NCBI RefSeq assembly: GCF_000007145.1
Contig: NC_003902.1
Span: forward strand, 2,017,436 to 2,049,435
Direction of reading: 5' to 3'
DNA: 32,000 bases
Origin: Xanthomonas campestris pv. campestris str. ATCC 33913
GTDB lineage: Bacteria > Pseudomonadota > Gammaproteobacteria > Xanthomonadales > Xanthomonadaceae
How positions within the stretch are numbered: the first letter of the stretch is position 1; each line of letters opens with the position of its first letter. Under the pieces are notes generated by a model, which saw nothing but the letters and a program-made list of their open reading frames with translations, was not told the DNA's origin and searched no databases. Position numbers and translations under genes: made by a program. This document shows, in pieces, positions 10,237 through 32,000 of this stretch.

Positions 10237-10295
10237 TTTTGAATACCTTTCCAGGAATATTTCATTGGTGTGGCATGACAGGCCCGCCCTATGCT
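10237..10295 (+). promoter_or_regulatory. candidate promoter region of TonB-dependent receptor 2
   Basis: The order is TTTTGAATAC, then 13 nt, then TTTCATTGG (with TTGGTG), then 19 nt, then TATGCT. This parallels blocks 6972-7031. Confidence 0.3.
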
Positions 10296-10434
10296 CCCGC
10301 CGCAGCCGCTAGGTAAGCCTTGTTGGGATTACCACGCATCCACCAGCCCAAGGCCCTTGCCGCGGCCGGATGTGGCAGCAACGACGACAGGGCAGGGCGT
10401 TCGCGCACCTGCCCGCCAAAAAATAAGCAGTACA

Positions 10435-10450
10435 TGCGTCCTGGGAGGGA
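10435..10450 (+). promoter_or_regulatory. conserved leader/RBS element TGCGTCCTGGGAGGGA, copy 2
   Basis: The 16-mer is identical to copy 1 and again ends 5 nt before the ATG (10456). A hairpin at 10390-10414 (GGGCAGG...CCTGCCC) lies 20 nt upstream. Confidence 0.5.
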
Positions 10451-10455
10451 GCACC

Positions 10456-13191: not shown

Positions 13192-13262
13192 AACGCGCCG
13201 TAGGAAGTGCGTCGCCGGTCCGGCGAGCTGTGCAGGCAGCTCGTTGGACTGGTGTTTTTCCT

Positions 13263-13283
13263 ATCGACGGCGTTGCCGTCGAT
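13263..13283 (+). other. perfect 9-bp stem-loop just upstream of the GH74 RBS
   Basis: ATCGACGGC-gtt-GCCGTCGAT is preceded by GTGTTTTTCC and followed 8 nt later by GGAGCCGGAGGA and the ATG at 13303. Its function is unknown. Confidence 0.3.
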
Positions 13284-13302
13284 CGCGAGGGGAGCCGGAG
13301 GA

Positions 13303-15558: not shown

Positions 15559-15661
15559 GCAGTGCATGCCTGTCCGCGACGCCCTGCTGCTTTACCGTGT
15601 ACGGCGCCGCCGGCCTGGCCGCTGCGGGCGCCGTGACACCGCCGACCCTGGAGATCACCGC

Positions 15662-17575
15662 ATGACCCCGTCCCACATTTCCCGCGCCTGCTTGCTGGGT
15701 GTGTTGCTGTCCAGCGGCAGCGCCGCCGCGCAACCGAGCCTGCCGTTGCTGTTTGCCGATGGCGCGGTGCTGCAGCGCGATGAGGCGATGCCGGTATGGG
15801 GCTGGGCCACGCCCGGCGCTTCAATCACGGTGAGTTTCGATGGCAAGCAGGCCACCGCCAAGACCGACGCGCAGGGGCAGTGGAAGGTTCTCCTGCCCGC
15901 ACACACCGCCGGTGGCCCGTACGTGCTGAGCGTGCATGGCGACGGCGGCGCGCTGCAGGTGCGCGATGTGCTGGTCGGCGATGTCTGGCTGGCCAGTGGG
16001 CAATCGAACATGGAGTGGCCACTGGCCCAGGCCAGCGATGGCCCGCAGGCGGTGGCGGCGGCCAACGATGCGCAGCTGCGCCACTTCAAGGTGCCCAAGT
16101 CGTGGTCGGTGCAGCCGGAGACCAAGCTCACCGGTGGCGACTGGAAAGCGGCCATGCCGGAGAACGCCGGTGCGTTTTCGGCGGTGGGCTATTTTTTTGC
16201 GAAAGAGTTGCGCGCCAGTACCGGCGTACCGATCGGCATTGTCGACAGCACCTGGGGCGGCAGCGCGATCGAGGCGTGGATGGACGCGGCCTCGCTGGGC
16301 CTGAAAGCCGAGCAAAACCAGGGCGCGATCGAGGCGATCAAGCAGCGCGATGCGGCCGCGCAGGCCGCCACCGGCAAGCGCATCGGGCGCTGGCCCAAGG
16401 TGGACGGCGACACCCCGCAGTGGCGCACGCCCGAATTCGATGACCGCGACTGGGACAGCATCCCGGTGACCCAGCAATGGGAACTCAGCGGCTATGAGGG
16501 CATGGACGGCATTGCCTGGTACCGCACCACCTTTACCCTGACCGCCGCCGAAGCCAAGGCCGGCGTGCAGCTGGGGGTTGGCCAGATCGACGATTCGGAT
16601 ATCACCTACGTCAATGGCCAGCAGGTGGGCCAGACCGAGAAACAGTGGAACCTGCCGCGCGTGTATGCAGTGCCGGCGGCGGCGCTGCGGGCCGGCGTCA
16701 ACCAGATCGCGGTGCGCGTGGAAGACCTCAGTGGCGGTGGCGGCATGCACGGCCCGGACGAACAGCGCTTCGTGCAGATCGGCAGCACCCAGCGCGCCCT
16801 GGCGGGCTGGAAATTCCGCCCGGCGCAGGTGCGCGTGTCGCTCACCGACAACAAGAACCAGCTCCCCACGCTGCTCTACAACCAGATGATCCACCCGCTG
16901 CAGCCATTCCCGGTCAAGGGCGTGATCTGGTACCAGGGCGAAACCAACGCCACTGACACCGGCGCAGTGAAATACCGCGACCAGTTCGCTGCGATGATCC
17001 AGCAGTGGCGCGCCGAGCGCGGTGCCAAGCGGTTGCCGTTCCTGTGGGTGCAGCTGGCCAACTTCAAGGCCGGCGGCGACACCGGCGATCTGAGTCCGTG
17101 GGCGCTGCTGCGCGAATCGCAGTCCAAGACGCTGGCGCTGCCGGCGACCGGGCAGGCGGTGATCATCGACATCGGCAACCCCACCGACATCCACCCCACC
17201 AACAAGCGTGATGTAGGCCATCGCCTGGCGCTCGCTGCGCGGCATGTGGCCTACGGCGAAACGCTGGTATACAGCGCGCCGGTCTTCGCCCGCGCCAGCT
17301 ATGCCGATGGCCAGGCCAGCGTGCAGTTCGATCTGCAGGGCAGTGCCTTGCAGGTGCGCGGCGGCGGTACGTTGCAGGGCTTTGCGGTGGCCGGTGCGGA
17401 CAAGCGGTTCCACCCGGCGCAGGCGCGCATCGCTGGCGATCGGGTGATCGTGCGCAGCGATGCGGTGGCCGCGCCGGTGGCAGTGCGCTACGGCTGGAGC
17501 GAAAACCCCGCCGACGCCAACCTGGTCAACCGCGAGCAATTGCCCGTTTCCCCCTTCCGAACCGATACCTGGTGA
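15662..17575 (+). CDS. SASA/sialate-O-acetylesterase-type carbohydrate acetylesterase, probably a xyloglucan acetylesterase, 637 aa
   Basis: A signal peptide (…SSGSAAAQP) is followed by [11 protein letters not shown]...PVWGWA and the catalytic GQSNM motif ([13 protein letters not shown]). A galactose-binding-like beta-sandwich is inserted (WYRTTFTL...[17 protein letters not shown]), and WYQGETN occurs later. ATG 15662 follows GGAG. Confidence 0.8.
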
Positions 17576-17586
17576 CACGGAGTCCT

Positions 17587-19326
17587 ATGTCCATGCATTC
17601 CCCCGTTGCACGCGTGATCCCCCGTTCGCTGGCCGGCCGTTGCCTGCGGCCGTTGCTGTTGTCTTCCCTGGCGGTGGCGCTGGCCGCCTGCCAGTCCGGC
17701 GAGCCGGACAGCGCCGCGAAGCCGCAGGCCGCCGCAACGCCAGGTACCACGGCACCGGCCACGGCGCCTGCCGCCGCACCGGCGACGCAGACCCCGATGC
17801 CGCAATTCGTCAGCAAGGACGGCAAGCACGCCCTGATGGTGGACGGCGCGCCGTTCCTGATCCTCGGCGCGCAGGTCAACAATTCCAGCAACTATCCCGG
17901 CGTGATGGACAAGGTGTGGCCGGCGATGCAGGTGCTGGGCCCGAACACCGTGCAGGTGCCGATCGCCTGGGAGCAGGTGGAGCCGGAAGAAGGCAAGTTC
18001 GATTTCTCCTTTGTCGACACGTTGCTGGCGCAGGCGCGCGAGCACAAGGTGCGGCTGGTGCTGCTGTGGTTCGCCACCTGGAAGAACAATGGCCCGGCCT
18101 ACGCGCCGCATTGGGTGAAGACCGACAACCAGCGCTTCCCGCGCGTGGTGACGCGCGAAGGCAAGGCGATCGGGTCGCTGTCGCCGCATGCGCAGGCCAC
18201 GCTGGATGCCGACCGCAAGGCGTTCGTCGCCTTCATGCAGCATCTCAAGCAGGTCGATCCGCAGCACACGGTGATCATGATCCAGCCGGAAAACGAGCCG
18301 GGCACCTACGGTAGCGTGCGCGACTTCTCGCCGATGGCGCAGAAGTTGTTCGACGGCCCGGTGCCGGACGAACTGCTCAAGCGATTGAACAAGCAGCCGG
18401 GCAGCTGGGCGCAGGTGTTTGGCGCCGATGCCGACGAGATCTTCCACGCATGGTCGATCGGTCGTTACATCGATCAGGTGGCCGAAGCCGGCAAGCAAGC
18501 CTATCCGCTGCCGATGTACGTCAATGCGGCGTTGCGCGGGCCGTTCAATCCGGGCCAGCCCGGCCAGTACGCCAGCGGTGGCCCCACCGATAACGTGCTC
18601 GACGTGTGGAAGGCCGCCGGCCCGCATATCGACCTGCTGGCACCGGACATCTACATGCCCGAGTACCGCATGTACACCACGGTGCTGGAGCGCTACGCGC
18701 GCCCGGACAATGCCTTGTTCGTGGCTGAAACCGGCAACCGCCCGGAATACGCGCGTTACCTGTTCCCCACGCTGGGGCACGACGGCGTCGGCTGGTCGGC
18801 ATTCGGCATGGACTACACGCGCTATTCCAACTATCCGCTGGGCGCCAAGCACGTCAACGAAGAAACCCTGGCGCCGTTTGCGCTGGGCTTCAAGCTGGTA
18901 AGCCTAGGCATGCGCCCGTTCGCCAAGGCTGCATCCGAAGGCAAGCTGCACGGCACCGCCGAAGAACCCGGCCAGGCCGTGCAGGAGCTCAAGCTCAACG
19001 ACCGCTGGAGCGCCACCATCACCTACGGCGTGCCGCAGTTCTGGTTCAAGGGCGAGCCGCCGGGCAACCCCGAGCCGATCGGCGCGGCACTGATTGCCGA
19101 GCTGGGCCCGGACGAATTCCTGGTCACCGGTTACCACGTGCGCGTGACCCTGCATCCGGCTAGCGAAGCCACCGCCAACATGCTCTACGACCGCGTGGAA
19201 GAGGGCCAGTACGACGGCGACACCTGGCAGTTCCAGCGCAACTGGAATGGCGACCAGACCGACTACGGCGTCAATTTCTCCAGTGCACCGCAGCTGCTCA
19301 AGATCAAGCTGGCCACCTACAACTAA
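17587..19326 (+). CDS. clan GH-A beta-galactosidase (GH35-like with a C-terminal beta-sandwich), lipoprotein, about 579 aa
   Basis: The lipobox is LAVALAAC. The TIM-barrel motifs are [26 protein letters not shown]...[14 protein letters not shown]...IMIQPENEP (acid/base NE). The start is uncertain: ATG 17587 lies 4 nt after GGAG, GTG 17572 would overlap the esterase stop, and ATG 17593 is also possible. Confidence 0.7.
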
Positions 19327-19530: not shown

Positions 19531-19548
19531 CTGCCGCCCCCGCGGCAG
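19531..19548 (+). terminator. weak terminator or attenuator-like hairpin before the GH31 RBS
   Basis: CTGCCGC-cccc-GCGGCAG is followed by TGTTTCG. It is the third of three consecutive stem-loops, the second being GTGCGG-cgca-CCGCAC at 19498-19513. Confidence 0.3.
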
Positions 19549-19574
19549 TGTTTCGCCATTCAAAGGGAGTGAAC

Positions 19575-22478
19575 ATGCAAACCACCCACCATTCCGCCGG
19601 CCGTGCGCCCGCATCCCGACGTCGGCCGCTCGCGCAATGCGTGGCGCTGTCGTTGGCCTTGTTGGCCAATGCCGCGTATGCGCAGGAAGTGCGCAAGGCC
19701 GCCGACGGCGTCACCGTGATGCCGAGCGCCAAGGGTGCCGCAGCGGTGCGTCTGCAGGTGGTCGATGCCGGCATCATCCGCGTCAGTGCCGATCCCGATG
19801 GCGACTTCGCGCGCACGCCCAGCCTGATGCGCGTGCCGGTGCAGGGCGATACCGCCTTCCAGGTGGCCGAGCAGGGCGACAGCGTGCAGCTGAAGACCGG
19901 CAAGGTCACCGCCACCGTGTCCACCGTCGATGGCCATGTCAGCTTCGCCGATGCCAATGGCAAGCCGGTGTTGTCCGAAGTGGCCGGCGGGCGCAGCTTT
20001 GCGCCGCTGAAAGTGGAAGGCAAGCAGTACCTGAGCGTGCGTCAGCGTTTCCAGTCGCCCGATGACGAAGGCTTGTACGGCTTCGGCCAGCACCAGCAGG
20101 GCTGGATGAACCAGAAGGGCCGCAACGTCGAGCTGCAGCAGAACAACATCGACATGGCGGTGCCGTACCTGGTGTCCAGCCGCAACTACGGCCTGCTGTG
20201 GGACAACAACTCGATCACCCGCCTGGGCGATCCGCGCGGCCTGCAGCCGCTGCCCAAGTCGCTCAAGTTGTACGACGCCAAGGGCAAGTCCGGTGCACTG
20301 ACCGCGCGCTACGCCATCAATGGCAAGCAGGTGCTGGAACGCCGCGAGAGCGAAGTGAATTACCAGTACCTCAGCGACCTGACCAAGTTCCCGAAGAAGG
20401 CGATCACCAAGGACAAGGACAGCCGCATGCAGGTCACCTGGGAGGGCGAGATCGAAGCGCTCACCGGTGGCGAGCACACCTTCTCGCTGTACTCGAGCGA
20501 GTACGCCAAGCTGTACGTGGACGGCAAGCTGGTGATCGATCGCTGGCGCCAGAACTGGAACCCCTGGAATCACGAGTTCAAGCTGGATCTGGAGCCCGGC
20601 ACGCGGCACACCGTCAAGATCGAATGGGATCTGATCGACCCCAGCTACATCGCGCTGCTGCACCGCGACCCACTGCCCGCCACCGAGGCGAAGGATCTCT
20701 CGCTGTGGTCCGAAGCCGGACAGATGATCGACTACTACTTCGTCTCGGCCGACTCCTACGACCAGGCCGTGGCCGGTTACCGCGAACTCACCGGCAAGTC
20801 GGTGATGCTGCCGAAGTGGGCGTATGGCTTCTGGCAGAGCCGCGAGCGCTACAAGAGCCAGGACGAACTGGTGGGCGCGGTGGCCGAATACCGCAAGCGC
20901 AAGCTGTCGCTGGACAACATCGTGCTCGACTGGTCGTACTGGCCGGAAAACGCCTGGGGCTCGCATGATTTCGATCCGCAGCATTTCCCGGACCCGGACG
21001 GCATGGTCAAGGCCGTGCACGACATGCACGCGCAGATCATGATTTCGATCTGGCCCAAGTTCTATCCCACCACCGCCAACTACAAGGAACTGGACGCGGC
21101 GGGTTTCATGTTCAAGCGCAACGTCGAAGTCGGCGAGCTGGACTGGATCGGCAAGGGCTACAAGAACTCGTTCTACGACCCGTACTCCGAAAAGGCCCAG
21201 GCCATCTACTGGCGCCAGATCAACGAAAAGCTCAACAGCAAGGGCTTCGATGCCTGGTGGATGGACGCCGACGAGCCGGACGTGCATTCCAACCTGGACA
21301 TCGGTGAGCGCAAGGCACGCACCACGCCGACCGCGTTGGGCCCTTCAACCGAGTTCTTCAATTCGTATCCGTTGCCGCACACGCACGGCGTGTACGTGGG
21401 TGACCGCGCCGCCGACGACAAGCGCGTGTTCATCCTCTCGCGCAAGGGCTATGCCGGCACGCAACGCAATGCAGTGGCGGTATGGAGCGGCGACATCGTC
21501 TCGCGTTGGGACGACATGCACGACCAGATTTCCGCCGGCGTGAACATGGCGCTGTCGGGCCTGCCGAACTGGACCTTCGACATCGGCGGCTTTGCGGTGG
21601 AGAAGCGTTACGAAAACCAGGACCCGGCGCATCTGCCGGAATGGCGCGAACTCAACACGCGCTGGTTCCAGTTCGGTGCGTTCGTGCCGATCTTCCGCTC
21701 GCATGGCCAGTTCCCGTACCGCGAGATCTGGAACATCGCCCCGGAAGGCACGCCGTTCTACGAGAGCATGGCCTACTACAACCGCCTGCGTTACGCCCTG
21801 CTGCCGTACATCTACAGCCTGGCCGGCGATACCTACCAGCGTGACGGCGTGATCATGCGCGGCATGATGATGGACTTCCCGGATGACGCGAAGGCACGCG
21901 ACATCAACGACCAGTACCTGTTCGGCCCGGCATTCCTGGTCGCACCGGTGACCCGCTTCGGCGCGACCTCGCGGCAGGTGTATCTGCCGGCCGGCAGCAG
22001 CTGGCTGGATTTCGCCACCGGCAAGCGCTACGAGGGTGGCCAGACCATCGAGGCCGCCGCGCCGATCGAACGCATGCCGCTGTTCGTGCGTGCCGGCTCC
22101 ATCGTGCCCACCGGCCCGGTGCAGGAGTACGTTGACCAGAAGCCGGATGCGCCGCTCACCGTGGTGGTCTACACGGGTGCCAATGGTCAGTTCTCGTTGT
22201 ATGAGGACGACGGCAAAGGCTATGGCTACGAGAAGGGCGAGTTCAGCCGCATTCCGCTGAGCTGGGACCAGGCCAAGGGCGAGCTGCGCATCGGCCAGCG
22301 CGAAGGCAGCTGGACCGGCATGCAGGCCAAGCGCACCATCAATGTGCGTTTTGTCGACGGACCGCGTGAGGACGCCGGTGCGCTGGAGCCCAAGGTGGAC
22401 ACCAGCATCCAGTACGACGGCAAGCCGGTCAGCGTGTTGCAGCGCAAGATTGCGCCCGGCAAAGCGCGTCGTCGATGA
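19575..22478 (+). CDS. GH31 alpha-xylosidase with a PA14 insertion, 967 aa
   Basis: The signal peptide ends ...LLANAAYAQE. The GH31 nucleophile region is KGFDAWWMDADEPD, and WSGD and FRSHG motifs are present. A PA14-like insert reads TARYAINGKQV...GEHTFSLYSSEYAKLYVDGKLVIDRW. Alpha-xylosidase specificity is inferred from context. Confidence 0.85.
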   Translation: MQTTHHSAGRAPASRRRPLAQCVALSLALLANAAYAQEVRKAADGVTVMPSAKGAAAVRLQVVDAGIIRVSADPDGDFARTPSLMRVPVQGDTAFQVAEQGDSVQLKTGKVTATVSTVDGHVSFADANGKPVLSEVAGGRSFAPLKVEGKQYLSVRQRFQSPDDEGLYGFGQHQQGWMNQKGRNVELQQNNIDMAVPYLVSSRNYGLLWDNNSITRLGDPRGLQPLPKSLKLYDAKGKSGALTARYAINGKQVLERRESEVNYQYLSDLTKFPKKAITKDKDSRMQVTWEGEIEALTGGEHTFSLYSSEYAKLYVDGKLVIDRWRQNWNPWNHEFKLDLEPGTRHTVKIEWDLIDPSYIALLHRDPLPATEAKDLSLWSEAGQMIDYYFVSADSYDQAVAGYRELTGKSVMLPKWAYGFWQSRERYKSQDELVGAVAEYRKRKLSLDNIVLDWSYWPENAWGSHDFDPQHFPDPDGMVKAVHDMHAQIMISIWPKFYPTTANYKELDAAGFMFKRNVEVGELDWIGKGYKNSFYDPYSEKAQAIYWRQINEKLNSKGFDAWWMDADEPDVHSNLDIGERKARTTPTALGPSTEFFNSYPLPHTHGVYVGDRAADDKRVFILSRKGYAGTQRNAVAVWSGDIVSRWDDMHDQISAGVNMALSGLPNWTFDIGGFAVEKRYENQDPAHLPEWRELNTRWFQFGAFVPIFRSHGQFPYREIWNIAPEGTPFYESMAYYNRLRYALLPYIYSLAGDTYQRDGVIMRGMMMDFPDDAKARDINDQYLFGPAFLVAPVTRFGATSRQVYLPAGSSWLDFATGKRYEGGQTIEAAAPIERMPLFVRAGSIVPTGPVQEYVDQKPDAPLTVVVYTGANGQFSLYEDDGKGYGYEKGEFSRIPLSWDQAKGELRIGQREGSWTGMQAKRTINVRFVDGPREDAGALEPKVDTSIQYDGKPVSVLQRKIAPGKARRR

Positions 22479-22560: not shown

Positions 22561-24933
22561 GTGGTCACCGTGCTGACACGCAGAGAACTCTGCAAGGCAA
22601 CCGGGGCCGCAGTCGCGGTCCTGGGTGGCGCTCCGGCGTTGTCGCAGGCAGCCGACATCGCGCCATTGCCTGCGGTCGCCCCGGACGATGCCTTGCACCT
22701 GTGGTATCGCGAGCCGGCCAATGAATGGGTGCAGGCCTTGCCGGTCGGCAACGGCCGGCTGGGCGCGATGGTGTGGGGCGGCATCGCCCACGAGCGTCTG
22801 CAACTCAACGAAGACACGCTGTATGCCGGTGGCCCGTACGACGCCACCAATCCGCAGGCGCTGGCGGCGTTGCCGCAGGTTCGCGCGCTGATCTTTGCCG
22901 GCCGCTATGCGGAGGCCGAGCAGCTGGCCGATGCCAAGCTGTTGTCGCGCCCGCTCAAGCAGATGCCGTACCAGCCGTTGGGCGATCTGTTGCTGGATTT
23001 CGACCGTGCCGACGGCATCAGTGAGTACCGTCGGCAGCTCGATCTGGATACCGCAGTGGCCACCACCACGTTCCGCTCCGGCGGCGCGGTGCACCGGCGC
23101 GAGGTGTTCGTGTCGGCGCAGTCGCAGTGCATCGTGGTGCGTCTGTCCTGCGATCGGCCGGGTGGTATTTCATTGCGGGTGGGCATCGACAGCCCGCAGA
23201 GCGGCGAGGTCACGGTAGAGCAGGGCAGCCTGCTGTTCAGTGGCCGCAATGGCAGCTTCGCCGGCATCGACGGCAAGCTGCGCTTTGCATTGCGCGTGCT
23301 GCCCCAGGTCAAGGGTGGCAGCGTCACCGCGGTGCGCGACCGTCTGCGTATCCAGGGTGCCGATGAAGTGGTGTTGCTGCTGACCGCAGCCACCAGCTAC
23401 CAACGTTTCGATGCGGTGGAGGGCGATCCGCTCGCGCTCACCGTGGCAAGCCTGCAAAAAGCCGGCAAGCTCAGCTACGCCGCGTTGTTGCGCGCGCATT
23501 TGGCCGATCATCAACGCCTGTTCCGGCGCGTGGCGATCGACCTGGGCAGCAGCGAAGCGGCCAGGCTTCCCACCGACGAGCGCGTGCAGCGCTTTGCCGA
23601 GGGCAACGACCCGGCACTGGCAGCGCTGTATCACCAGTACGGCCGCTATCTGCTGATCTGCAGCTCGCGGCCCGGCACTCAACCGGCCAACCTGCAGGGC
23701 ATCTGGAATGACCTGATGCAGCCGCCGTGGGAGAGCAAGTACACCATCAACATCAACACCGAGATGAACTACTGGCCCAGCGAAGCCAACGCACTGCACG
23801 AGTGCGTGGAACCGCTGGAAGCCATGCTGTTCGATCTCGCCCGCACCGGTGCACACACCGCCCGTGCGCTGTACGACGCGCCCGGCTGGGTGGTCCACAA
23901 CAATACCGATCTATGGCGCCAGGCCGGGCCGATCGACGGTGCGCAGTGGAGCCTGTGGCCGATGGGCGGGGTGTGGTTGCTGCAGCAGTTGTGGGACCGC
24001 TGGGACTACGGCCGCGACCGTGCGTATCTGGCCAAGATCTATCCCTTGTTCAAGGGGGCGGCAGAGTTCTTCGTCGCCACCCTGGTGCGCGACCCCGGCA
24101 CCGGCGCGATGGTGACCAATCCGTCGATGTCGCCGGAAAACCAGCACCCATTCGGGGCGGCGGTCTGCGCCGGCCCGACCATGGATGCGCAGCTGTTGCG
24201 CGACCTGTTCGCGCAGTGCATCGCGATGAGCAAGTTGCTTGACGTCGATGCCGCGCTGGCACAGCAGCTGGCCACGCTGCGCGAGCAATTGCCGCCCAAC
24301 CGCATCGGCAAGGCGGGGCAGTTGCAGGAGTGGCAGCAGGACTGGGACATGCAGGCGCCGGAGATCCATCACCGCCACGTCTCGCATCTGTATGCCTTGC
24401 ATCCCTCCAGCCAGATCAACCTGCGTGACACGCCCGAGTTGGCGGCCGCCGCGCGACGTTCGCTGGAGATTCGCGGCGACAACGCCACCGGCTGGGGCAT
24501 CGGCTGGCGCCTGAACCTGTGGGCGCGGCTGGCCGACGGCGAGCATGCGTACCGCATCCTGCAACTGCTGCTCTCGCCCGAGCGCACCTATCCGAACCTG
24601 TTCGACGCACATCCGCCGTTCCAGATCGATGGCAACTTCGGCGGCACCGCCGGCATTACCGAGATGCTGCTGCAAAGCTGGGGTGGCAGTGTGTTCCTGC
24701 TGCCGGCCTTGCCCAAGGCCTGGCCGCGCGGCAGCGTGCGCGGCCTGCGTGTGCGCGGCGGCGCCAGCGTGGATCTGGAATGGGATGCAGGTCGCTTGCA
24801 GCAGGCCCGTGTGCACAGCGATCGTGGCGGGCGCTATCAACTGTCCTATGCAGGGCAGACCCTGGACCTGCAACTGGGCGCCGGGCGCACCCAGCAGGTG
24901 GGCCTCAACAACAACCGATTGGTGAAGCAATGA
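22561..24933 (+). CDS. GH95 alpha-L-fucosidase, about 790 aa, with a Tat-like signal
   Basis: The N-terminus reads LHLWYREPANEWVQALPVGNGRLGAMVWGGIAHERLQLNEDTLYAGGP. Later motifs are NTEMNYWP, HRHVSHLYALHP and ATGWGIGWRLNLWARL. The N-terminal TRRELCKATGAAVAVLGG...LSQAAD resembles a twin-arginine signal. The start (GTG 22561 or GTG 22570) is uncertain. Confidence 0.85.
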   Translation: MVTVLTRRELCKATGAAVAVLGGAPALSQAADIAPLPAVAPDDALHLWYREPANEWVQALPVGNGRLGAMVWGGIAHERLQLNEDTLYAGGPYDATNPQALAALPQVRALIFAGRYAEAEQLADAKLLSRPLKQMPYQPLGDLLLDFDRADGISEYRRQLDLDTAVATTTFRSGGAVHRREVFVSAQSQCIVVRLSCDRPGGISLRVGIDSPQSGEVTVEQGSLLFSGRNGSFAGIDGKLRFALRVLPQVKGGSVTAVRDRLRIQGADEVVLLLTAATSYQRFDAVEGDPLALTVASLQKAGKLSYAALLRAHLADHQRLFRRVAIDLGSSEAARLPTDERVQRFAEGNDPALAALYHQYGRYLLICSSRPGTQPANLQGIWNDLMQPPWESKYTININTEMNYWPSEANALHECVEPLEAMLFDLARTGAHTARALYDAPGWVVHNNTDLWRQAGPIDGAQWSLWPMGGVWLLQQLWDRWDYGRDRAYLAKIYPLFKGAAEFFVATLVRDPGTGAMVTNPSMSPENQHPFGAAVCAGPTMDAQLLRDLFAQCIAMSKLLDVDAALAQQLATLREQLPPNRIGKAGQLQEWQQDWDMQAPEIHHRHVSHLYALHPSSQINLRDTPELAAAARRSLEIRGDNATGWGIGWRLNLWARLADGEHAYRILQLLLSPERTYPNLFDAHPPFQIDGNFGGTAGITEMLLQSWGGSVFLLPALPKAWPRGSVRGLRVRGGASVDLEWDAGRLQQARVHSDRGGRYQLSYAGQTLDLQLGAGRTQQVGLNNNRLVKQ

Positions 24934-26423
24934 GCGTGTACGTAGGACTGGATGTCGGCACACAGAGCGTCAAGCTGGTGGCCTACGATCCGCAGGAGCG
25001 CGCTGTGGTCGCCACCATCGGCGCGCCGATGGAATTGATCAGCCGCGACGATGGCACCCGCGAGCAGCAGGCGCAGTGGTGGATCGACGGCATCGTGCAT
25101 TGCTTCGCGCAGCTCGATGCCGAGCTGCGTGCGCGCGTGCGCGGCATCTCGGTGTCCGGGCAGCAGCATGGCTTCGTGCCGGTGGCCGCCGATGGCAGCG
25201 TCACCGCGCCGGTGAAGCTGTGGTGCGATACCAGCACCGCGCTGGAATGCGACGAGATCATGGATGCGGTGGGCGGTGCGGCAGGCAGCGTGGCCACCGC
25301 CGGCAACCCGATCATGGCCGGCTACACGGCATCCAAATTGCCGTGGACGCGCAAGCATCGCCCCGAGGCGTATGCGGCGATGACCACGGTGATGTTGCCG
25401 CATGACTACGTGAACTTCTGGCTCACCGGCGAGCGCTTCACCGAGGTGGGTGATGCCTCCGGGACCGGTTGGCTGGATGTGCGCACCCGCCAGTGGTCCG
25501 AGCGCATGCTTGGCGCGATGGATGCGCAACGCGATCTGCGCGATGCCTTGCCGCCGCTGGTGGAGACCGGCGCAGTGTTCGCCCTGTCCGATGCAGCTGC
25601 AGAAGCGCTCGCATTGCCGGCCGGCGTGCGCGTCACCACCGGCGGTGGCGACAACATGATGGCGGCGATCGGTACCGGCAATGTGGTGCCCGGCCGCCTG
25701 ACCATGAGCCTGGGCACCTCCGGCACCTTGTTTGCCTACGCCGATCATCCAGTGGTGGACGACGACGCACGCTGGGCCGCGTTTTGCTCGTCCAGCGGTG
25801 GCTGGTTGCCGTTGATCTGCACCATGAACTGCACCGTGGCCACCGAAGCGGTGATGCGCATGTTCTCCATCACCCGTGCGCAGACCGAGGCCATGATCGC
25901 CGACACCACGCCCGGTGCCGACGGGCTGGTGCTGTTGCCGTTCTTCAACGGCGAGCGCACACCCAATCTGCCGGATGCGCGTGGCTGCCTGTTCGGCATG
26001 GATCTGCACAACACCACGCCGGCGCATTTCTATCGCGCGGCGATGGAAGGGGCCACCTACAGCCTGCGCAATGGCTTCGACGCCTTTGTCGCCGCCGGCC
26101 TGCAGTTCGATACCATCCTGCTCACCGGCGGCGGCAGCAAGAGCGCGCAGTGGCGGCAGATGGTGGCCGACGTGTTCAACCTGCAGGTGGTGGTGCCGAC
26201 CCAGCCCGAAGGCGCGGCGTTTGGTGCCGCGCTGCAGGCGGTGTGGGCCTGCGACCGCGACGATGGCGGCCAGGCCGCGTTGTCGGAGGTGGTGCTGGAG
26301 CACCTGCAGATCGACGATGCATTGTCGGCGCGCCCGGATCCGCAACGCGTGGCCGCCTACCAGCAGCACTACCAGAACTTCCTCAAGCACCTGCACGTCG
26401 TCAGCCCGCTCTACGCCGGCTGA
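24930..26423 (+). CDS. xylB: xylulokinase (FGGY family), 497 aa
   Basis: MSVYVGLDVGTQSVKLVAYD...ISVSGQQHGFV...GGGDNMMAAIGTG...LLTGGGSKSAQWRQMVADVF are FGGY kinase motifs. The ATG overlaps the GH95 stop as ATGA (24930-24933). The track ORF start at 24519 is an artefactual extension. Confidence 0.9.
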   Translation: MSVYVGLDVGTQSVKLVAYDPQERAVVATIGAPMELISRDDGTREQQAQWWIDGIVHCFAQLDAELRARVRGISVSGQQHGFVPVAADGSVTAPVKLWCDTSTALECDEIMDAVGGAAGSVATAGNPIMAGYTASKLPWTRKHRPEAYAAMTTVMLPHDYVNFWLTGERFTEVGDASGTGWLDVRTRQWSERMLGAMDAQRDLRDALPPLVETGAVFALSDAAAEALALPAGVRVTTGGGDNMMAAIGTGNVVPGRLTMSLGTSGTLFAYADHPVVDDDARWAAFCSSSGGWLPLICTMNCTVATEAVMRMFSITRAQTEAMIADTTPGADGLVLLPFFNGERTPNLPDARGCLFGMDLHNTTPAHFYRAAMEGATYSLRNGFDAFVAAGLQFDTILLTGGGSKSAQWRQMVADVFNLQVVVPTQPEGAAFGAALQAVWACDRDDGGQAALSEVVLEHLQIDDALSARPDPQRVAAYQQHYQNFLKHLHVVSPLYAG

Positions 26424-26459
26424 TTCATCACTCCCCCAGTACCAAGGACCTCTCACCCC

Positions 26460-27800
26460 ATGAGCAACACCGTTTTCATCGGCGCGAAAGAATACTTCCC
26501 CGGCATCGGCAAGATCGGCTTCGAAGGCCGCGATTCGGACAACCCGCTCGCATTCAAGGTGTACGACGCCAACAAGCAGGTCGCCGGCAAGTCCATGGCC
26601 GAACACCTGCGCTTTGCGGTGGCCTACTGGCACAGCTTCTGCGGCAATGGCGCCGATCCGTTCGGCCCGGGCACGCGTGCGTATCCGTGGGACGTAGGCA
26701 ACACCGCGCTGGCGCGTGCCGAAGCCAAGTCCGATGCCGCGTTCGAATTCTTCACCAAGCTCGGCGTGCCGTATTACTGCTTTCACGACATCGACCTGGC
26801 GCCGGATGCGGACGACATCGGCGAGTACGAAAACAACCTCAAGCACATGGTGCGCATTGCCAAGCAGCGCCAGGCCGACACCGGCGTCAAGCTGCTGTGG
26901 GGCACCGCCAATCTGTTCTCGCACCCGCGCTACATGAATGGTGCCTCCACTAATCCGGACTTCAACGTCGTGGCGCGCGCCGCGGTGCAGGTCAAGGCGG
27001 CGATCGATGCCACGGTGGAGCTGGGCGGGGAAAACTACGTGTTCTGGGGCGGTCGCGAAGGCTACGCCTGCCTGCACAACACGCAAATGAAGCGCGAGCA
27101 GGACAACATGGCGCGCTTCCTGACCCTGGCGCGCGACTACGGGCGTGCGATTGGCTTTACCGGCAACTTCCTGATCGAGCCCAAGCCCATGGAGCCGATG
27201 AAGCACCAGTACGACTTCGACAGCGCCACGGTGATCGGCTTCCTGCACCAGCACGGCCTGGACCAGGATTTCAAGCTCAATATCGAAGCCAACCACGCCA
27301 CGCTGTCGGGCCACAGCTTCGAGCACGACCTGCAGGTGGCCAGCGATGCCGGCCTGCTCGGCAGCATCGATGCCAACCGCGGCAACCCGCAGAACGGCTG
27401 GGATACCGACCAGTTCCCAACCGACCTGTACGACACCGTCGGCGCGATGCTGGTGGTGCTGCGTCAGGGCGGGCTGGCACCGGGCGGGCTGAACTTCGAT
27501 GCCAAGGTGCGGCGTGAATCGTCCGACCCGCAGGACCTGTTCCTGGCCCACATCGGCGGCATGGACGCGTTCGCACGCGGGCTGGAAGTGGCCGACGCGC
27601 TGCTGACCTCTTCGCCCCTGGAAACCTGGCGCGCGCAGCGTTACGCCAGCTTCGACAGCGGCGCGGGCGCGGACTTTGCCAACGGCACCAGCACGCTGGC
27701 GGACCTGGCCAAGTACGCCGCCGGCAGGGGCGAGCCGACGCAAGTCAGCGGCCGCCAGGAGGCCTACGAGAACCTGATCAATCAGTACCTGACGCGTTGA
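26460..27800 (+). CDS. xylA: xylose isomerase (long, class II type), 446 aa
   Basis: [23 protein letters not shown]...[13 protein letters not shown]...YYCFHDIDL...FWGGREGY...[10 protein letters not shown]...[18 protein letters not shown] are canonical XylA motifs. Confidence 0.95.
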
Positions 27801-27808
27801 TGTCCCGT

Positions 27809-27859
27809 GGCCGGCGGCGCACTGCGTCGCCGGCCGATGGCGGTCACCCCCGTGACCGC
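27809..27859 (+). promoter_or_regulatory. two tandem GC-rich hairpins between xylA and the MFS porter
   Basis: The first hairpin is GGCCGGCGGCG...CGTCGCCGGCC (27809-27835, one mismatch). The second is GCGGTCAC-cccc-GTGACCGC (27840-27859). There is no U-tract. They may act as a partial terminator or an mRNA-processing or stability element. Confidence 0.3.
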
Positions 27860-27885
27860 TCCCTTGCATGTTTCCAGGTGAACCC

Positions 27886-29313
27886 ATGTCCAGTGTCTCC
27901 ATTGACGGCGCCCCCGATGCCGGCGAGAACACCCGTTTCATCATCCTGATCAGCTGCGTGGCCACGATCGGCGGCTTTCTGTTCGGCTTCGACAGTGGCG
28001 TGATCAATGGCACCGTCGACGGGCTCAAGCAGACCTTCCAGTCCAGCGCCGCCGAGACCGGCTTCGAAGTTGCCTCGATGCTGCTGGGGTGCGCCATCGG
28101 CGCCTTCTTTGCCGGCCGCCTGGCCGACCGCTGGGGCCGCCGTGCTGTCCTGATCATTTCTGCGGCGCTGTTCCTGCTCTCGGCTATCGGTGCCGGTGCC
28201 TCGCACAGCTCCGGCTTCTTCATCTTTGCCCGCGTGATGGGCGGCTTTGCGGTAGGCGCAGCCAGCGTCATTTCGCCGGCCTACATCGCCGAGGTTGCCT
28301 CCGCGCGCTATCGCGGCCGGCTCGCCACCATGCAGCAGATCGCCATCATCAGCGGGCTGTTCTGCGCGTTCTTGAGCAACTACCTGCTGGCCAATGCCGC
28401 CGGTGCGTCCACCGAGCCGTTATGGGGCGGGCAGGCGGCCTGGCGCTGGATGTTCTGGATGCAGGCCATCCCGTCGCTGCTGTTCCTGCTGCTGTTGCTG
28501 GTCATCCCCGAAAGCCCGCGCTACCTGGTGGTCAAGGGCCGTCGCGAGCAGGCGCTGGTGGTGCTCAAGCGGCTGTACGGTAACGCGGCCGCGCAGACCA
28601 AGCTGGGCGAAATCTCCGCCTCGATGTCGGCCGACCAGCACAAGCCCAAGTTCTCCGACCTGATCAGCAAGACCACCGGCAAGATCCGCCCGATCGTATG
28701 GATTGGCGTCGGCCTGGCGGTGTTCCAGCAACTGGTCGGCATCAACGTGGTGTTCTATTACGGCGCGGTGCTGTGGCAGGCAGTGGGCTTCTCCGAACAG
28801 GACGCCTTGCTGATCAACGTGCTCTCCGGCGGCCTCAGCATTGGTGCCTGCCTGGTCACGGTGATGCTGGTCGACAAGATCGGCCGCAAGCCGTTGCTGT
28901 GGATCGGCTCGGCCGGTATGGCGGTATCGCTGGCACTGGTGACCTACGCCTTCGCCACCGCCTCGCTGGATCCCAACGGCAAGCTCGCGATGTCCGATGC
29001 CATGGGCATGCTCGCGCTGGTTGCCGCCAACGTCTACGTGGTGTTCTTCAATGCCTCGTGGGGCCCGGTGATGTGGGTGATGCTGGGCGAGATGTTTCCC
29101 AACCAGATCCGCGGTTCGGGCCTGGCCATTGCCGGCGCTGCACAGTGGACTTCCAACTTCGCCATCACCGTCAGCTTCCCGATCCTGCTCGGCAGCATCG
29201 GTCTTGCCGGCGCCTACGGCATCTACACCGTTGCCGCCTTCATCTCGGTGTTCTTCGTGCTCAAGTACGTCTACGAGACGAAGGGCAAGGAGCTGGAGCA
29301 GATGGAGGGCTGA
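27886..29313 (+). CDS. MFS sugar porter (XylE/GlcP-like sugar:H+ symporter), 475 aa
   Basis: Sugar-porter signatures are present: GGFLFGFDSGVINGT, GRLADRWGRR, PESPRYL, VDKIGRKPLL and YETKGKELEQME, across about 12 TM segments. I preferred the start ATG 27886 (AGGTG 6 nt upstream) over 27868. Confidence 0.9.
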   Translation: MSSVSIDGAPDAGENTRFIILISCVATIGGFLFGFDSGVINGTVDGLKQTFQSSAAETGFEVASMLLGCAIGAFFAGRLADRWGRRAVLIISAALFLLSAIGAGASHSSGFFIFARVMGGFAVGAASVISPAYIAEVASARYRGRLATMQQIAIISGLFCAFLSNYLLANAAGASTEPLWGGQAAWRWMFWMQAIPSLLFLLLLLVIPESPRYLVVKGRREQALVVLKRLYGNAAAQTKLGEISASMSADQHKPKFSDLISKTTGKIRPIVWIGVGLAVFQQLVGINVVFYYGAVLWQAVGFSEQDALLINVLSGGLSIGACLVTVMLVDKIGRKPLLWIGSAGMAVSLALVTYAFATASLDPNGKLAMSDAMGMLALVAANVYVVFFNASWGPVMWVMLGEMFPNQIRGSGLAIAGAAQWTSNFAITVSFPILLGSIGLAGAYGIYTVAAFISVFFVLKYVYETKGKELEQMEG

Positions 29314-29324
29314 TCACGGCGTTG

Positions 29325-29338
29325 TGCTGATATCAGCA
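29325..29338. repeat. 14-bp perfect palindrome immediately after the porter stop codon
   Basis: TGCTGATATCAGCA is its own reverse complement. It starts 12 nt after the TGA and sits directly before the terminator hairpin. Confidence 0.4.
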
Positions 29339-29343
29339 TGAGA

Positions 29344-29380
29344 AACGCAGAAGGCCGCGCAATGCGCGGCCTTCTGCGTT
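29344..29380 (+). terminator. strong terminator hairpin closing the xyl/porter transcription unit
   Basis: AACGCAGAAGGCCGCGC-aat-GCGCGGCCTTCTGCGTT is a perfect 17-bp stem with a 3-nt loop. It is followed by GATGAT, with no clear U-tract. Confidence 0.75.
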
Positions 29381-29611
29381 GATGATCTCGCCGGGATCTG
29401 CCGATGTCTCGCATGCCTGCATCGCTGCAAGCGACTCAGTCGAGCTGGCTGTCATCGTTGGGCTGGATGCGGCGTGTGTGCCCCTGGCAACTGCCCGCAG
29501 CTCTGGCCTCTGCTGTATCAGGCGGCCTGATTCCCGCGTGGCCCAACGCACCAGCAAAGTGCAATGCACGTCTTCAACTGCGATAACCGCCCGCAAGCGC
29601 GCAGGCTCTTC

Positions 29612-29638
29612 TTGCAAATTGTGCGCCACCGCTATACT
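29612..29638 (+). promoter_or_regulatory. candidate sigma-70 promoter for the MASE1 gene
   Basis: TTGCAA (29612-29617) is followed by 15 nt and then TATACT (29633-29638), about 57 nt upstream of ATG 29695. The -10 is good, but the spacing is shorter than optimal. Confidence 0.3.
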
Positions 29639-29694
29639 CCAATAGGTAGTTTCCCTCCAGACTAGGGCGAATCGTGGAACCAAGGAGTGGTGGT

Positions 29695-31233
29695 ATGGCG
29701 GTAGCTAAAGAGCTTGTTAGGGGCATGCTGATCAGCGTGTGCTACTGCTTGGCGTTTCTGATGCTTTGGCGCTTGTCGATCGACCAATGGTATCTGCCAG
29801 TTGGGTTGCGCGTAGTCACTTTGCTGTTCCGGCCTTACCGCGAGTGGCCTTTTCTGTTGGCAGGTGACGCTGCGGCGATGTTGTTCTTGCGTATTCCGCT
29901 GGGCGAATTGCAGGGATTTAATCCGTTATGGTCATATCTGAGTCCCTTCGTACATGCGCCTTTGATTGCTGGGGCGATTGGCCTACTTCGATACCAAGTT
30001 CCTCATATTGTTAAAAGCCAGCAATGGTTTATTCCTGCTGCTCTTGTCATAGCTCTCTGGAACGCTATATGCAGCTTGGTGCTAAACTCGACCCTCGGTG
30101 GACCGCAGGCTTATCCTGTACTAGACCTGATGTTGCGCTATTGGTCAGGTAGCTATCTGGGCATGCTGGTCTTGCTTCTTCCGGCGATGTTATGGGCTAA
30201 CTGGAATGATGGTCCTGTACGCCTGAGTCTCCAGCGAGATCTTGCAATCGCGGTGGCTGTTATCCTAAGTCTGTTTTTTTTATTAGGGGTCTCGCAAGAG
30301 CCATTGACTCGAAACATCTTGATGGTAGCGATGCTCGTGCCAATGGTCGTGTTGACTTTCAGGCACGGGTGGAAAGGCAGTGCTCTAGGGTCACTATTGG
30401 CAAGCTTCGCAATTGAGTTCTCGCTTCCTCGGGTGTATCAGATCGGTTTTTTTGATCAACAAGTTTTTAGTATGCAGTTGCTCTATGCGGTCACGACGAC
30501 AGTTCTTTTTGTTTTCAATGCTCGTCTGCGCGAGCCAGCCCGCAATAAGGTTTCAAGTCAACCAGGAGATGACGCCTTCACTCTAGCCCGAGCCAGCTAT
30601 TCTAGTGCTGAGCGCATGCTACGCAATCGAGTGCTGGAGTACTCTGACATCAATGTTCAGATCAACAAGATGCGCAAAGATGTGGTGGCTGATTTGAGGG
30701 GGAGAGGGCAGCATTCTGCAGCAATGGAAATGACACGAGTCAGTGTCCTTGAGTCGCAATTGCTTCAGCAGTATGTCGCCGCGCTGTATCCGTTGGAAAT
30801 CGAGACGCATGGGCTGTATCAGGCTCTGCGTTCGTCAGCACTCGAGCGTTTCTGCCAGTCTCAGTTTCAATGCGTGTTTCGCGGTGACTGCAGGAAGCTA
30901 TCGTTGGAACTTCAATTGAGTGCTTATCGCAGTACTCTCAATTGTGTGGAGATCTTGCCGCCGGCCAGTCGGCACTTCATCCAGGCTCGTGCTTGGACCG
31001 GGAAAGGGGCTAGGGGCGTGTTGGTGCGTGTAATTGCTGATTCGTCGTCAGCTGAGGCGGCCAAGAGCGACTCGATCGATGTGGAGGCTGAACTGAAGGC
31101 GCGGTTGAAAGCGCATGGCGGCATGTTTCGCCGCCGCCATGCGCTGGTTCTGACCTTTCTGGTTGCCGAGCCAGTCTCCGTTGCGGTCAGGGGGAGACTA
31201 TCCAGTGTTCCCCAGTTGCTTCCCGCCAGTTGA
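29695..31233 (+). CDS. MASE1-like integral membrane sensor fused to a degenerate UhpB/NarX-type (HisKA_3 plus HATPase-like) module, a putative pseudo-histidine kinase, 512 aa
   Basis: AAGGAG lies 7 nt before ATG 29695. The N-terminal ~290 aa have 8-10 TM segments with UhpB-like landmarks ([24 protein letters not shown] vs UhpB [38 protein letters not shown] vs WHYGWQGALIATLM). The C-terminal half is colinear with the UhpB kinase core but has diverged at the key boxes: [11 protein letters not shown] vs [21 protein letters not shown] vs EGLNNIVKH, VIADSSS vs IEDDGSG, and [10 protein letters not shown] vs MRERVTALGG. This alignment was done by eye from memory of UhpB. Confidence 0.6.
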   Translation: [512 protein letters not shown]

Positions 31234-31657
31234 ATACCGTGAAGTTCTTTGTTTTGTAGACAAGTCGTGCTTGATCACGCTGAGTTGAATCAAGCATTGG
31301 CGGATTGTTTGAACTCGTGCCGGCTGCAATCCTGTTTGCAGCCGGCAACACGACACGTTCTACATCCTTGCCCATCGGCAAGGTCCAGAGTGCGTTGTCC
31401 ACTCTTGCTACCACTGCGTGGACCACGCCAGTTACGTCGTTGATCTGGAGATATGTCACTCCATCACGATGGAGTTCATAAATGGCAAGCGAAGGATCCA
31501 TTGTTAGATTGGCTGCCTTGGGATTGCTTTCGCCAAGCCCTGTCATTGCATGTACGCCGACACCACCATTGGCACAGCACTGAGCCACTGCCATGCCTGA
31601 TGACAGCATTCCAGCAACGACGCAAAAAGCCATAAGCCAATTTTTTGAGTTCTTCAT
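31187..31657 (-). CDS. small secreted protein of unknown function, 156 aa
   Basis: ATG 31657 is preceded by GGGGAAGG. The Sec signal is MKNSKNWLMAFCVVAGMLSSGMAVAQ, followed by CCANGG. The mature part appears rich in beta-strand-forming residues and I recognise no family. The gene is low-GC like its neighbour. Its 3' end overlaps the MASE1 gene 3' end by 47 nt. Confidence 0.55.
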   Translation of the reverse strand: MKNSKNWLMAFCVVAGMLSSGMAVAQCCANGGVGVHAMTGLGESNPKAANLTMDPSLAIYELHRDGVTYLQINDVTGVVHAVVARVDNALWTLPMGKDVERVVLPAANRIAAGTSSNNPPMLDSTQRDQARLVYKTKNFTVFNWREATGEHWIVSP

Positions 31658-31708
31658 GATTTTGCCTTCCCCCTGCATGGGGCAACACCGCCTGCGATTC
31701 AGGCGCTT

Positions 31709-31721
31709 ACACGTTACGTGT
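31709..31721. promoter_or_regulatory. inverted repeat ACACGT-t-ACGTGT upstream of the small secreted-protein gene
   Basis: Two 6-bp arms are separated by one nt, 52-64 nt upstream of the minus-strand ATG 31657. It is a candidate operator only. Confidence 0.25.
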
Positions 31722-31863
31722 TGAATGGCAGATTTTGTTGATTGTTTGTCGCAGAAAATCGCTGCGGCATACCGTCCGCCGAACAGCGAGGAACAGTCAA
31801 CCGCGTCCGCCGTTACCTGGACCTATCCGGTCAGGCGTGATGTGCAGTGCTGGAGCGCGCTAT

Positions 31864-32000
31864 TTAGCGGCTCGGCTCGAGTTCGCCACCGGCACGTTCA
31901 AACCATCCAATCACTCGCCGGTGATGAGGTTCGCCCCAACGACGCAAGAACTGCTGGGTGTGGTGGTCGCCGAGGTCGCGCAGGCTGGCGAGTCGTTGGG
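31864..32000 (-). CDS. 3' end of an unidentified high-GC gene that continues beyond the window
   Basis: The minus-strand frame is open from the window edge to TAA (31866-31864). It translates as ...QRLASLRDLGDHHTQQFLRRWGEPHHRRVIGWFERAGGELEPSR*. The ORF track does not list it because its start lies outside the window. GC returns to host level here. I recognise no family. Confidence 0.4.
   Translation of the reverse strand, partial: QRLASLRDLGDHHTQQFLRRWGEPHHRRVIGWFERAGGELEPSR

Follow-up and report, generated by a model that had tools for sequence, protein, structure and literature searches.

The sensor kinase UhpB of Escherichia coli senses via a separate partner protein, UhpC, and in the RetS-GacS system of Pseudomonas aeruginosa a histidine kinase (HK)-like protein controls a genuine kinase through contacts between dimerization and histidine phosphotransfer (DHp) domains, without catalysis of its own. 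In AgrD/AgrC of Staphylococcus and ComX/ComP of Bacillus, the gene for an exported signal stands beside that for a polytopic-membrane HK receptor (ComP being a HisKA_3-class kinase), and the two fall into discrete, deeply divergent allele classes that co-vary within a species. Pore-forming colicin and immunity pairs likewise consist of convergent, allele-specific genes for an exported and an inner-membrane protein, the immunity protein having three to four transmembrane helices and no cytoplasmic domain. To our knowledge, only a few bacterial pseudo-histidine kinases have been recognized, and MASE1, a very common bacterial membrane sensor domain, has no directly established ligand. One of those few, DivL of Caulobacter crescentus, has the HK fold without the phospho-acceptor His and is reported to signal by protein-protein contacts in place of phosphotransfer (PMC4211667). 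The present analysis concerns a stretch of 32,000 nucleotides (nt) from Xanthomonas campestris pv. campestris str. ATCC 33913 (NC_003902.1, positions 2,017,436 to 2,049,435), hereafter the window, and within it a gene for a MASE1 membrane protein of 512 amino acids (aa), the query, whose cytoplasmic half is a degenerate HK core. This gene is convergent with that of a small secreted protein, its partner, and the pair forms a hypervariable two-gene cassette that may encode a receptor and its ligand.

The MASE1 protein and its degenerate kinase core

The MASE1 gene, read from the sequence, is an intact open reading frame (ORF) of 512 codons plus a stop, with a ribosome-binding site (RBS; AAGGAG at 29682-29687) 7 nt 5' of its ATG and a start Met that is common to its homologues in alignment. 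An earlier annotation of this DNA, made without database searches and here called the sequence-only reading, had already described such an ORF with a good RBS, and had assigned the N-terminal half to MASE1; Pfam bears this out, matching PF05231 to aa 2-280 with an E of 8.9e-61 and 206 bits (gathering cut-off 29.8) over profile positions 2-297 of 299. In an AlphaFold2 (AF2) model, 9-10 helical segments are found within aa 2-286, which fits eight transmembrane helices, the topology being taken from the AF2 helices alone.

The cytoplasmic half is descended from a UhpB-type HisKA_3/HATPase_c core, as the sequence-only reading had supposed from domain order, and the predicted fold, Foldseek and profile-profile alignment agree on this. 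Conventional searches do not detect it: neither HisKA_3 (PF07730) nor HATPase_c (PF02518) was matched at E<=10 in Pfam or NCBIfam, with the full protein or with its C-terminal 238 residues, the only extra matches being a weak one to the UhpB equivalog over the MASE1 part and chance matches; no kinase was found among PDB sequences by phmmer with the query or by a 23-member family profile (a chance match to ARID3A had an E of 0.38); and BLASTP against E. coli UhpB returned weak similarity over MASE1 only. In the AF2 model, which was built from 35 family members (mean predicted local distance difference test score 82), a long helical hairpin (aa 290-336 and 340-364) is followed by an alpha/beta domain (aa 390-493). 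The top Foldseek matches in the PDB are almost all HK cores composed of DHp and catalytic and ATP-binding (CA) domains, the best being DesKC (3ehj; E 1.9e-4, probability 1.00), and further matches include ZraS, HK853, CpxA, CusS and the non-canonical DivL (4q20) and RetS (6dk7); the template-modelling scores are low because the query was submitted at full length and the two domains differ in orientation. A profile of the family's C-terminal part, searched against 1.84 billion representative proteins, retrieved only 110 proteins at E<=1e-3, nearly all of 500-550 aa and of identical layout, and its weak tail (library-wide E 4e-6 to 3e-4) contains intact MASE1-HisKA_3-HATPase_c kinases that keep the ELHD, E..N..RH, DDGxG and GxGLxG motifs, among them P0184, whose architecture is given by precomputed Pfam. 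Comparison by hhalign of the family with five of these tail kinases and E. coli UhpB gave a probability of 96.6% and an E of 6.4e-10; the 140 aligned columns extend from helix 2 of the DHp domain through the CA domain, the significant part beginning only at about aa 357. The profile searches that the sequence-only reading had proposed as a check were divided, standard Pfam being blind to a homology that the fold search and profile-profile comparison reveal; to reject the core for want of HisKA_3/HATPase profile homology, as that reading would have allowed, would be wrong here, because the Pfam searches are blind to it.

Residues at the catalytic columns were counted in 126 family representatives. 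The column of the N-box Asn is a one-residue deletion in all 126, and the query has LN for the adjoining QE. The G1 motif DDGxG reads ADSSS, its first Asp being Ala in 75 representatives and its Gly positions P, S, A or T across the family, and the G2 motif GxGLxG reads VEAELK (vEAELkAR against kinase GxGLxGLxDR), its Gly positions being Ala in 85 and Glu in 90. Scaffold positions have been kept, as was earlier noted by eye: R..HGG is retained (HGG against kinase LGG), and the scaffold Arg is present in 114 of the 126. Both hhalign and the joint alignment with intact kinases place a 12-residue segment of the query opposite kinase LRPxxLDxLGLY, and an 11-residue segment aligns with AYRivQEavtN, the N-box region.

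For the H-box, the joint alignment sets kinase E..ER.R...ELHD opposite a 17-residue segment of the query, by which the phospho-His column falls at N320; this column is Q in 47 representatives, N in 37, R in 16 and H in 8 (Q, N or R in 100 of 126). The LYP proline follows N320 at a distance of 46 residues, and the corresponding distance from His to the LRP proline is 47 in the nearest kinase and 54 in UhpB. The sequence-only reading had instead taken DLRGRGQ (aa 333-339) as the H-box, with R335 at the phospho-His position, a register about 15 residues off; it was rejected, as this segment forms the hairpin turn in the AF2 model and R335 is only 31 residues from the proline, against 47. The loss of the His holds nevertheless, no His being conserved anywhere in helix 1 in either register, and the replacement of the N, G1 and G2 boxes that was claimed alongside it stands, the homologue alignment then recommended showing the substitutions to be family-wide. 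H340, just after the turn, is not conserved (H, Y, F, L or other across the family), and the phosphatase positions of HisKA_3 (D and Q of HDxxxQ) are V/L and R/D/E among the representatives, so that the phosphatase-only role once entertained is unlikely; the other roles then proposed (scaffold, anti-kinase, receptor or immunity factor) are conjectural. Judged by these residues, the protein is predicted to be catalytically dead and canonically unable to bind ATP or to autophosphorylate; the database label 'histidine kinase' for family members is wrong in the catalytic sense.

The degenerate core has been under strong purifying selection. Against six orthologs of 76-91% identity, Nei-Gojobori ratios of nonsynonymous to synonymous substitution rates (dN/dS) are 0.08-0.11 for MASE1 and 0.045-0.078 for the C-terminal half, and the protein is conserved over its full length down to 30% identity, in Lysobacteraceae and beyond, with invariant residues of the family's own (R310, R327, Y365, P366, E370, G373, R412, G441, G476 and E492). 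Because the catalytic loss is family-wide and the selection strong, this is, on the strength of sequence comparison, an old, selected family of functional pseudokinases and not a product of decay, and the earlier argument against simple decay has survived the dN/dS test it called for (0.045-0.11). An HK fold that has been kept, a missing phospho-acceptor and maintained selection together place the protein among the pseudo-histidine kinases. The family comprises about 110 clusters at 50% identity and is found mainly in Lysobacteraceae (Xanthomonas, Lysobacter and related metagenome-assembled genomes), apart from outlying members in Paracidovorax cattleyae and one Pseudomonas; databases name its members 'MASE1 domain-containing protein' or 'histidine kinase'.

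The secreted partner and the hypervariable cassette

The partner gene probably starts at 31657, giving 156 aa, with an RBS (GGAAGG) at 31665-31670, and its ORF extends to 31678, where an alternative upstream ATG would give 163 aa. Its Sec signal peptide ends ...AVA, directly before QCC, leaving a mature protein of about 130 residues (~13 kDa) with a conserved N-terminal vicinal Cys pair (CC-P or C-G-C-P) and two conserved blocks, GLGES-P and YEFxRDGxxYLQIND...WVLPxGxDxxRV; the N-terminal two-thirds are conserved and the C-terminus is variable. The signal is a plain Sec signal, and no export, lysis or maturation gene is conserved beside the partner gene. The AF2 core is a confident all-beta fold for which Foldseek found nothing significant (best E 0.25 in the PDB, 0.07 among viral proteins). 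No Pfam family matches the partner, PADLOC has no match for the pseudokinase, the partner or the neighbours of the Lysobacter-type loci described below, and the partner's homologues are all named 'hypothetical' or 'secreted protein'.

Linkage of the two genes is directly observed, and the partner is obligate. In 75 of 80 reference-genome loci it is convergent with and abuts the pseudokinase gene, four of the five misses being contig ends, and the sole fully flanked locus with no detectable partner (L033, Lysobacteraceae bacterium USHLN149, 5923-7560) holds a pseudokinase of 50% identity at the syntenic xylA-MFS site (MFS, major facilitator superfamily). At almost every related locus, the two genes overlap tail to tail by 4-62 bp. 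Homology of the partner extends to relatives of 30% identity, and in a relative 35% identical the arrangement is again convergent and the small proteins are homologous with an E of 4e-27. Pairwise identities of pseudokinase and partner correlate with r = 0.81 over 74 loci. The sequence-only reading had called the MASE1 gene an orphan, which is right insofar as no response regulator adjoins it, and wrong in view of this convergent partner.

At a syntenic Xanthomonas site, the two genes form a sharply bounded cassette of 2.5 kb. Nucleotide homology of ~90% with other Xanthomonas species ends at 29375-29391 and resumes at ~31892, and the GC content is 0.51-0.53 across the two genes against about 0.65 around them. 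Identity of the neighbouring MFS transporter is 95-99% across all species, whereas the pseudokinases fall into classes of ~80%, 57% and 51% identity and the partners of the same classes into ~75%, 52% and 43%; within X. arboricola, and likewise within X. hortorum, the class differs between strains. Synonymous divergence (dS) of the flank is 0.27-0.45 whatever the class, and in the cassette it amounts to 0.49 with the 91% ortholog and to 1.2-1.6 with the 80% class; because cassette dS exceeds flank dS, the alleles are older than the divergence of the flanks or have been imported. Between classes, identity is 0.48 in the membrane domain, 0.69 in the DHp-like hairpin and 0.58 in the CA-like domain, and the least conserved stretches (aa 91-125, 161-215 and 241-265) cover predicted periplasmic loops 2-4. 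The left homology break coincides with a perfect inverted repeat that is probably the terminator of the transporter gene and that has sub-threshold Rfam 'Leu_leader' matches on both strands. In the upstream region of the MASE1 gene no Rfam family was matched above threshold, the sub-threshold matches lying over the palindrome only; a scan of 29250-32000 for sigma-70 promoters and intrinsic terminators gave nothing above shuffled expectation, and the repeat search found no flanking direct repeats of the mobile-element type at the cassette.

Copies beyond Lysobacteraceae have been found in Paracidovorax cattleyae, a betaproteobacterial plant pathogen (L040, L042), and in Pseudomonas sp. nanlin1 (L055), while X. 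albilineans CFBP2523 carries five complete cassettes in one genome (L038, L047, L048, L051, L053) and a partner homologue (P0230) is annotated on a plasmid of X. sontii. These outlier copies, multiple cassettes and the plasmid-borne partner suggest horizontal spread. Several Xanthomonas strains have truncated copies of 234-434 aa (P0032, P0045, P0051; P0246, P0252, P0255), some annotated 'Sensor kinase (fragment)', which indicates occasional gene loss.

Family members have no response regulator beside them in the window, as had been stated before, or in any of the unrelated contexts that were inspected. For P0188, the intact kinase closest to the family, a NarL/LuxR-type regulator gene (L095, 2994-3491, minus strand) lies downstream in convergent orientation, where the pseudokinase family has the secreted-protein gene, and there is no partner homologue. 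In 25 Lysobacter-type loci (e.g., L001, 7215-7880, and L062-L088), a third gene lies immediately upstream on the same strand and encodes a protein in which an XRE/YdaS-type helix-turn-helix (HTH) is fused to a Peptidase_S24-like domain whose catalytic Ser/Lys read Ala/Thr and Arg. This protein, apparently of a non-cleaving LexA/CI-like kind, is a candidate for the pseudokinase's output partner in the Lysobacter-type branch. Also in L001, downstream of the partner, a protein of 534 aa (10372-11976, minus strand) weakly matches zincin/reprolysin-like metallopeptidases (best E 2e-4). In X. albilineans L089/L090 (1972-5485), a paralogous cassette is divergent from genes for a C39-peptidase ATP-binding cassette (ABC) exporter, an HlyD-like protein and a 67-aa ORF, taken to be a bacteriocin or peptide export set, and on its other side lie an HTH-Mrr_cat-STAND NTPase gene and a transposase fragment.

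In the window itself, 7101-29313 is a xyloglucan/xylose utilisation locus, and the cassette is attached at its 3' edge (Table 1). Membership of the cassette in this locus was considered and rejected in view of its different GC content, different divergence and sharp homology breaks; with a GC content and an evolutionary history of its own, it is probably no part of it. A 1141-aa antisense ORF (24846-28271, minus strand) across xylB, xylA and the transporter gene is a high-GC shadow ORF and not a gene.

Table 1. Features of the cassette and of its surroundings, in window positions.
Feature	Position	Strand	Evidence
MASE1 pseudo-histidine kinase gene, 512 aa	29695..31233	+	ORF, Pfam, AF2, Foldseek, hhalign, dN/dS, residue counts
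MASE1 membrane domain, aa 2-280, ~8 transmembrane helices, most variable between allele classes	29698..30534	+	Pfam, AF2, between-class identity
DHp-like helical hairpin, aa 290-364, most conserved part	30562..30786	+	AF2 helices, joint alignment, column counts
N320 codon, column of phospho-His	30652-30654	+	joint alignment with intact kinases
Degenerate CA (HATPase_c-like) alpha/beta domain, aa 366-495	30790..31179	+	hhalign, Foldseek, residue counts, dN/dS
Upstream region of MASE1 gene, allele-specific, includes RBS	29381..29694	+	sequence reading; homology to other classes lost
Partner gene, 156-aa secreted/periplasmic protein	31187..31657	-	ORF, signal peptide, homologues, linkage
Tail-to-tail overlap of the two coding regions, 47 bp	31187..31233	.	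ORF coordinates
Partner upstream region, allele-specific, with RBS; far end is right cassette border	31658..31891	-	sequence; flank homology resumes ~31892
Perfect 18-nt inverted repeat, 1-nt loop, 30 nt after MFS stop codon, no T-run following	29344..29380	.	repeat search
LysR-type regulator	5911-6948
TonB-dependent receptors, two	7101-10118, 10291-12483
BNR/Sortilin-repeat protein, like glycoside hydrolase (GH) family 74	13207-15558
SASA esterase	15485-17575
GH35/42-like protein	17572-19326
GH31	19548-22478
GH95, then FGGY kinase	22561-24933 (GH95)
Xylose isomerase	26460-27800
MFS sugar porter	27868-29313

Proposed mechanism and competing explanations

The likely ortholog of the query in X. 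citri 306, XAC1778/bdp21, has been called a 'MASE1-containing sensor kinase', and its EZ-Tn5 mutant was impaired in biofilm formation, made 48% of the wild-type exopolysaccharide (EPS), swam and swarmed at 54% and 61% of the wild-type level, respectively, and showed a changed lipopolysaccharide (LPS) pattern (PMC3130047). The X. citri cluster is 77% identical to the query and holds the strain-306 UniProt entry 'Sensor kinase', the partner cluster holds 'Secreted protein', and XAC1778 lies next to xylose genes, probably at the same locus as the query. In the citrus canker pathogen, effects on envelope and biofilm are already on record for a likely ortholog.

The cassette of a membrane pseudo-histidine kinase and a Sec-exported partner is read here as a ligand-receptor mechanism, an account given about an even chance of being right. 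The exported partner would bind the variable MASE1 domain in the periplasm as its cognate ligand or co-sensor, with allele-specific recognition, and this binding would change the conformation of the cytoplasmic pseudo-DHp/CA dimer. Like DivL or RetS, the dimer would then signal through protein contact in place of phosphotransfer, docking with, sequestering or heterodimerising with a conserved cytoplasmic component; this component may be a HisKA_3 kinase or a NarL-type regulator in Xanthomonas, and the co-encoded HTH/S24-like protein would be the obvious candidate in Lysobacter-type loci. The output would affect cell-envelope and social traits, namely EPS, LPS, motility and biofilm. As a further, tentative and on the whole doubtful step, the alleles may represent a trans-species polymorphism under balancing selection, each class encoding an exported protein signal and a matching pseudokinase receptor; this protein 'pherotype' or kin-recognition system, working without phosphorylation, would allow Xanthomonas and Lysobacter strains to distinguish self from non-self and to tune EPS, LPS, motility and biofilm.

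Several points weigh against the ligand-receptor account. Correlated divergence is also expected of any tightly linked gene pair. The contact of the partner with MASE1 and its retention in the periplasm are both putative, and the type II secretion system may carry the partner beyond the periplasm. The topology of the MASE1 protein is modelled from AF2 helices and a cytoplasmic C-terminus, and the register of helix 1, which contains the H-box, is set by MAFFT alignment and spacing, outside the significant part of the hhalign match. The bdp21 transposon mutant was not complemented (PMC3130047), and the transposon could also disturb the overlapping partner gene; the proposed orthology of XAC1778 draws on annotation, synteny and the UniProt organism code, not on a sequence match to the locus tag. 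In Xanthomonas, neither a nearby regulator nor a cytoplasmic target was found: searches of the window and the Xanthomonas loci for a remnant or copy of the HTH/S24-like gene returned chance matches only (E of at least 0.059), and none of the 120 best database homologues of the HTH/S24-like protein bears a Xanthomonas name.

The main rival casts the cassette as one for competition or self-recognition, with the partner as an exported bacteriocin-like toxin or kin factor and the MASE1 pseudokinase as its immunity or recognition protein. Much of the evolutionary pattern would suit it: divergent allele classes occupy one syntenic site within single species, cassette dS runs from 0.5 to >1.5 against ~0.3 in the flank, the GC content is low, the two proteins co-diverge, the partner is conserved in its N-terminal two-thirds and variable at its C-terminus, some genomes hold several complete pairs (e.g., five in X. 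albilineans), one copy adjoins the C39-peptidase ABC exporter and HlyD-like gene, one partner is plasmid-borne, and the convergent order resembles that of pore-forming colicin and immunity genes. An immunity function, however, hardly explains a cytoplasmic domain of 230 residues that evolves at a dN/dS of ~0.05 and is more conserved than the membrane part; moreover, no toxin domain or fold was recognized in the partner by Pfam, PADLOC or Foldseek, a single copy among the evaluable loci (L033) lacks a partner, and the partner has a Sec signal only, with neither an export nor a lysis gene conserved beside it. This rival is accordingly considered unlikely.

Decidedly less probable still is an anti-phage or envelope-protection module, or a MASE1 protein that serves as phage or toxin receptor under diversifying pressure. 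A hypervariable, low-GC cassette exchanged like an island would be in keeping with it, as would the paralogue adjoining HTH-Mrr_cat-STAND NTPase and transposase genes and the altered LPS O-antigen pattern of the bdp21 mutant (PMC3130047); against this, neither protein has a PADLOC match, the partner has no viral fold relatives, the neighbours at the Xanthomonas site are core metabolic and not defence genes, and purifying selection extends over the whole protein. A cryptic active enzyme, phosphorylated at a non-canonical residue such as H340 or acting as phosphatase for a distant NarL-type regulator, might account for the HK fold, for the records annotated 'histidine kinase' and for a His that follows the hairpin turn, but it is very improbable given an N-box Asn deleted in 126 of 126, replaced G1/G2 glycines that leave no canonical Mg-ATP site, an H340 that varies and HDxxxQ positions that are V/L and R/D/E. 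Neutral decay of a former kinase gene into a frameshift-free pseudogene, to which the loss of all catalytic motifs and the truncated copies of 234-345 aa in a few strains might point, is rejected and left with next to no probability by a dN/dS of 0.045-0.11 in both halves, full-length conservation to 30% identity and the family's own invariant residues.

Comparison with known systems

In the literature, no paper was found that joins MASE1 with a pseudokinase, XAC1778 appears in one paper only, and no description of the pseudokinase nature, the partner or the cassette polymorphism was encountered; the XAC1778/Bdp21 study itself describes none of the three. The cassette ties MASE1 one-to-one to a co-evolving exported protein, which supplies a concrete, testable candidate ligand or co-sensor. 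The family adds a case in which the catalytic residues were lost long ago throughout and the fold has been kept under strong selection, and its allele classes within one species, in plant-pathogenic Xanthomonas, are a signature of loci for strain-level recognition or conflict. If true, the more doubtful reading as a polymorphic self-recognition system would make it the first signalling pathway with a defined protein ligand for MASE1 and with a bacterial pseudo-histidine kinase as dedicated receptor.

Compared with pore-forming colicin pairs, the partner has no recognisable toxin domain, and no lysis gene or LexA box was identified. UhpB of E. coli has the same size and domain order as the query (MASE1 12-276, HisKA_3 305-370, HATPase_c 411-497), and UhpB-type kinases share with it the scaffold motifs L(R/Y)P..(L/I)(D/E)..GLY, AYR and R..(L/H)GG. 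Unlike UhpB, the query has neither the phospho-His, the N-box Asn, G1 nor G2, and no cognate response regulator lies beside it as UhpA does for UhpB; in place of an MFS membrane protein, its partner is an exported protein of small size and all-beta fold, and the two genes form a hypervariable cassette.

Among non-catalytic relatives, DivL is of the HisKA class, has PAS domains in place of MASE1, lacks an exported partner linked to it, and is encoded by one of the conserved core genes of the cell cycle, not by a polymorphic cassette; in the present family the ATP-binding motifs have been erased as well. RetS has a periplasmic sensor and receiver domains; in the present family the DHp-like hairpin is the best-conserved part, and heterodimerisation of the RetS kind is putative. 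The Agr and ComQXPA systems resemble the cassette in their adjacent genes for an exported protein and a polytopic receptor, in co-varying discrete classes, and in a variable sensor joined to a conserved transmitter. In those systems, dedicated enzymes process short, modified signal peptides, and the receptors are active kinases paired with cognate response regulators, whereas the cassette pairs a folded partner of ~13 kDa, with a plain Sec signal and no conserved processing gene, with a receptor that is, by its sequence, catalytically dead.

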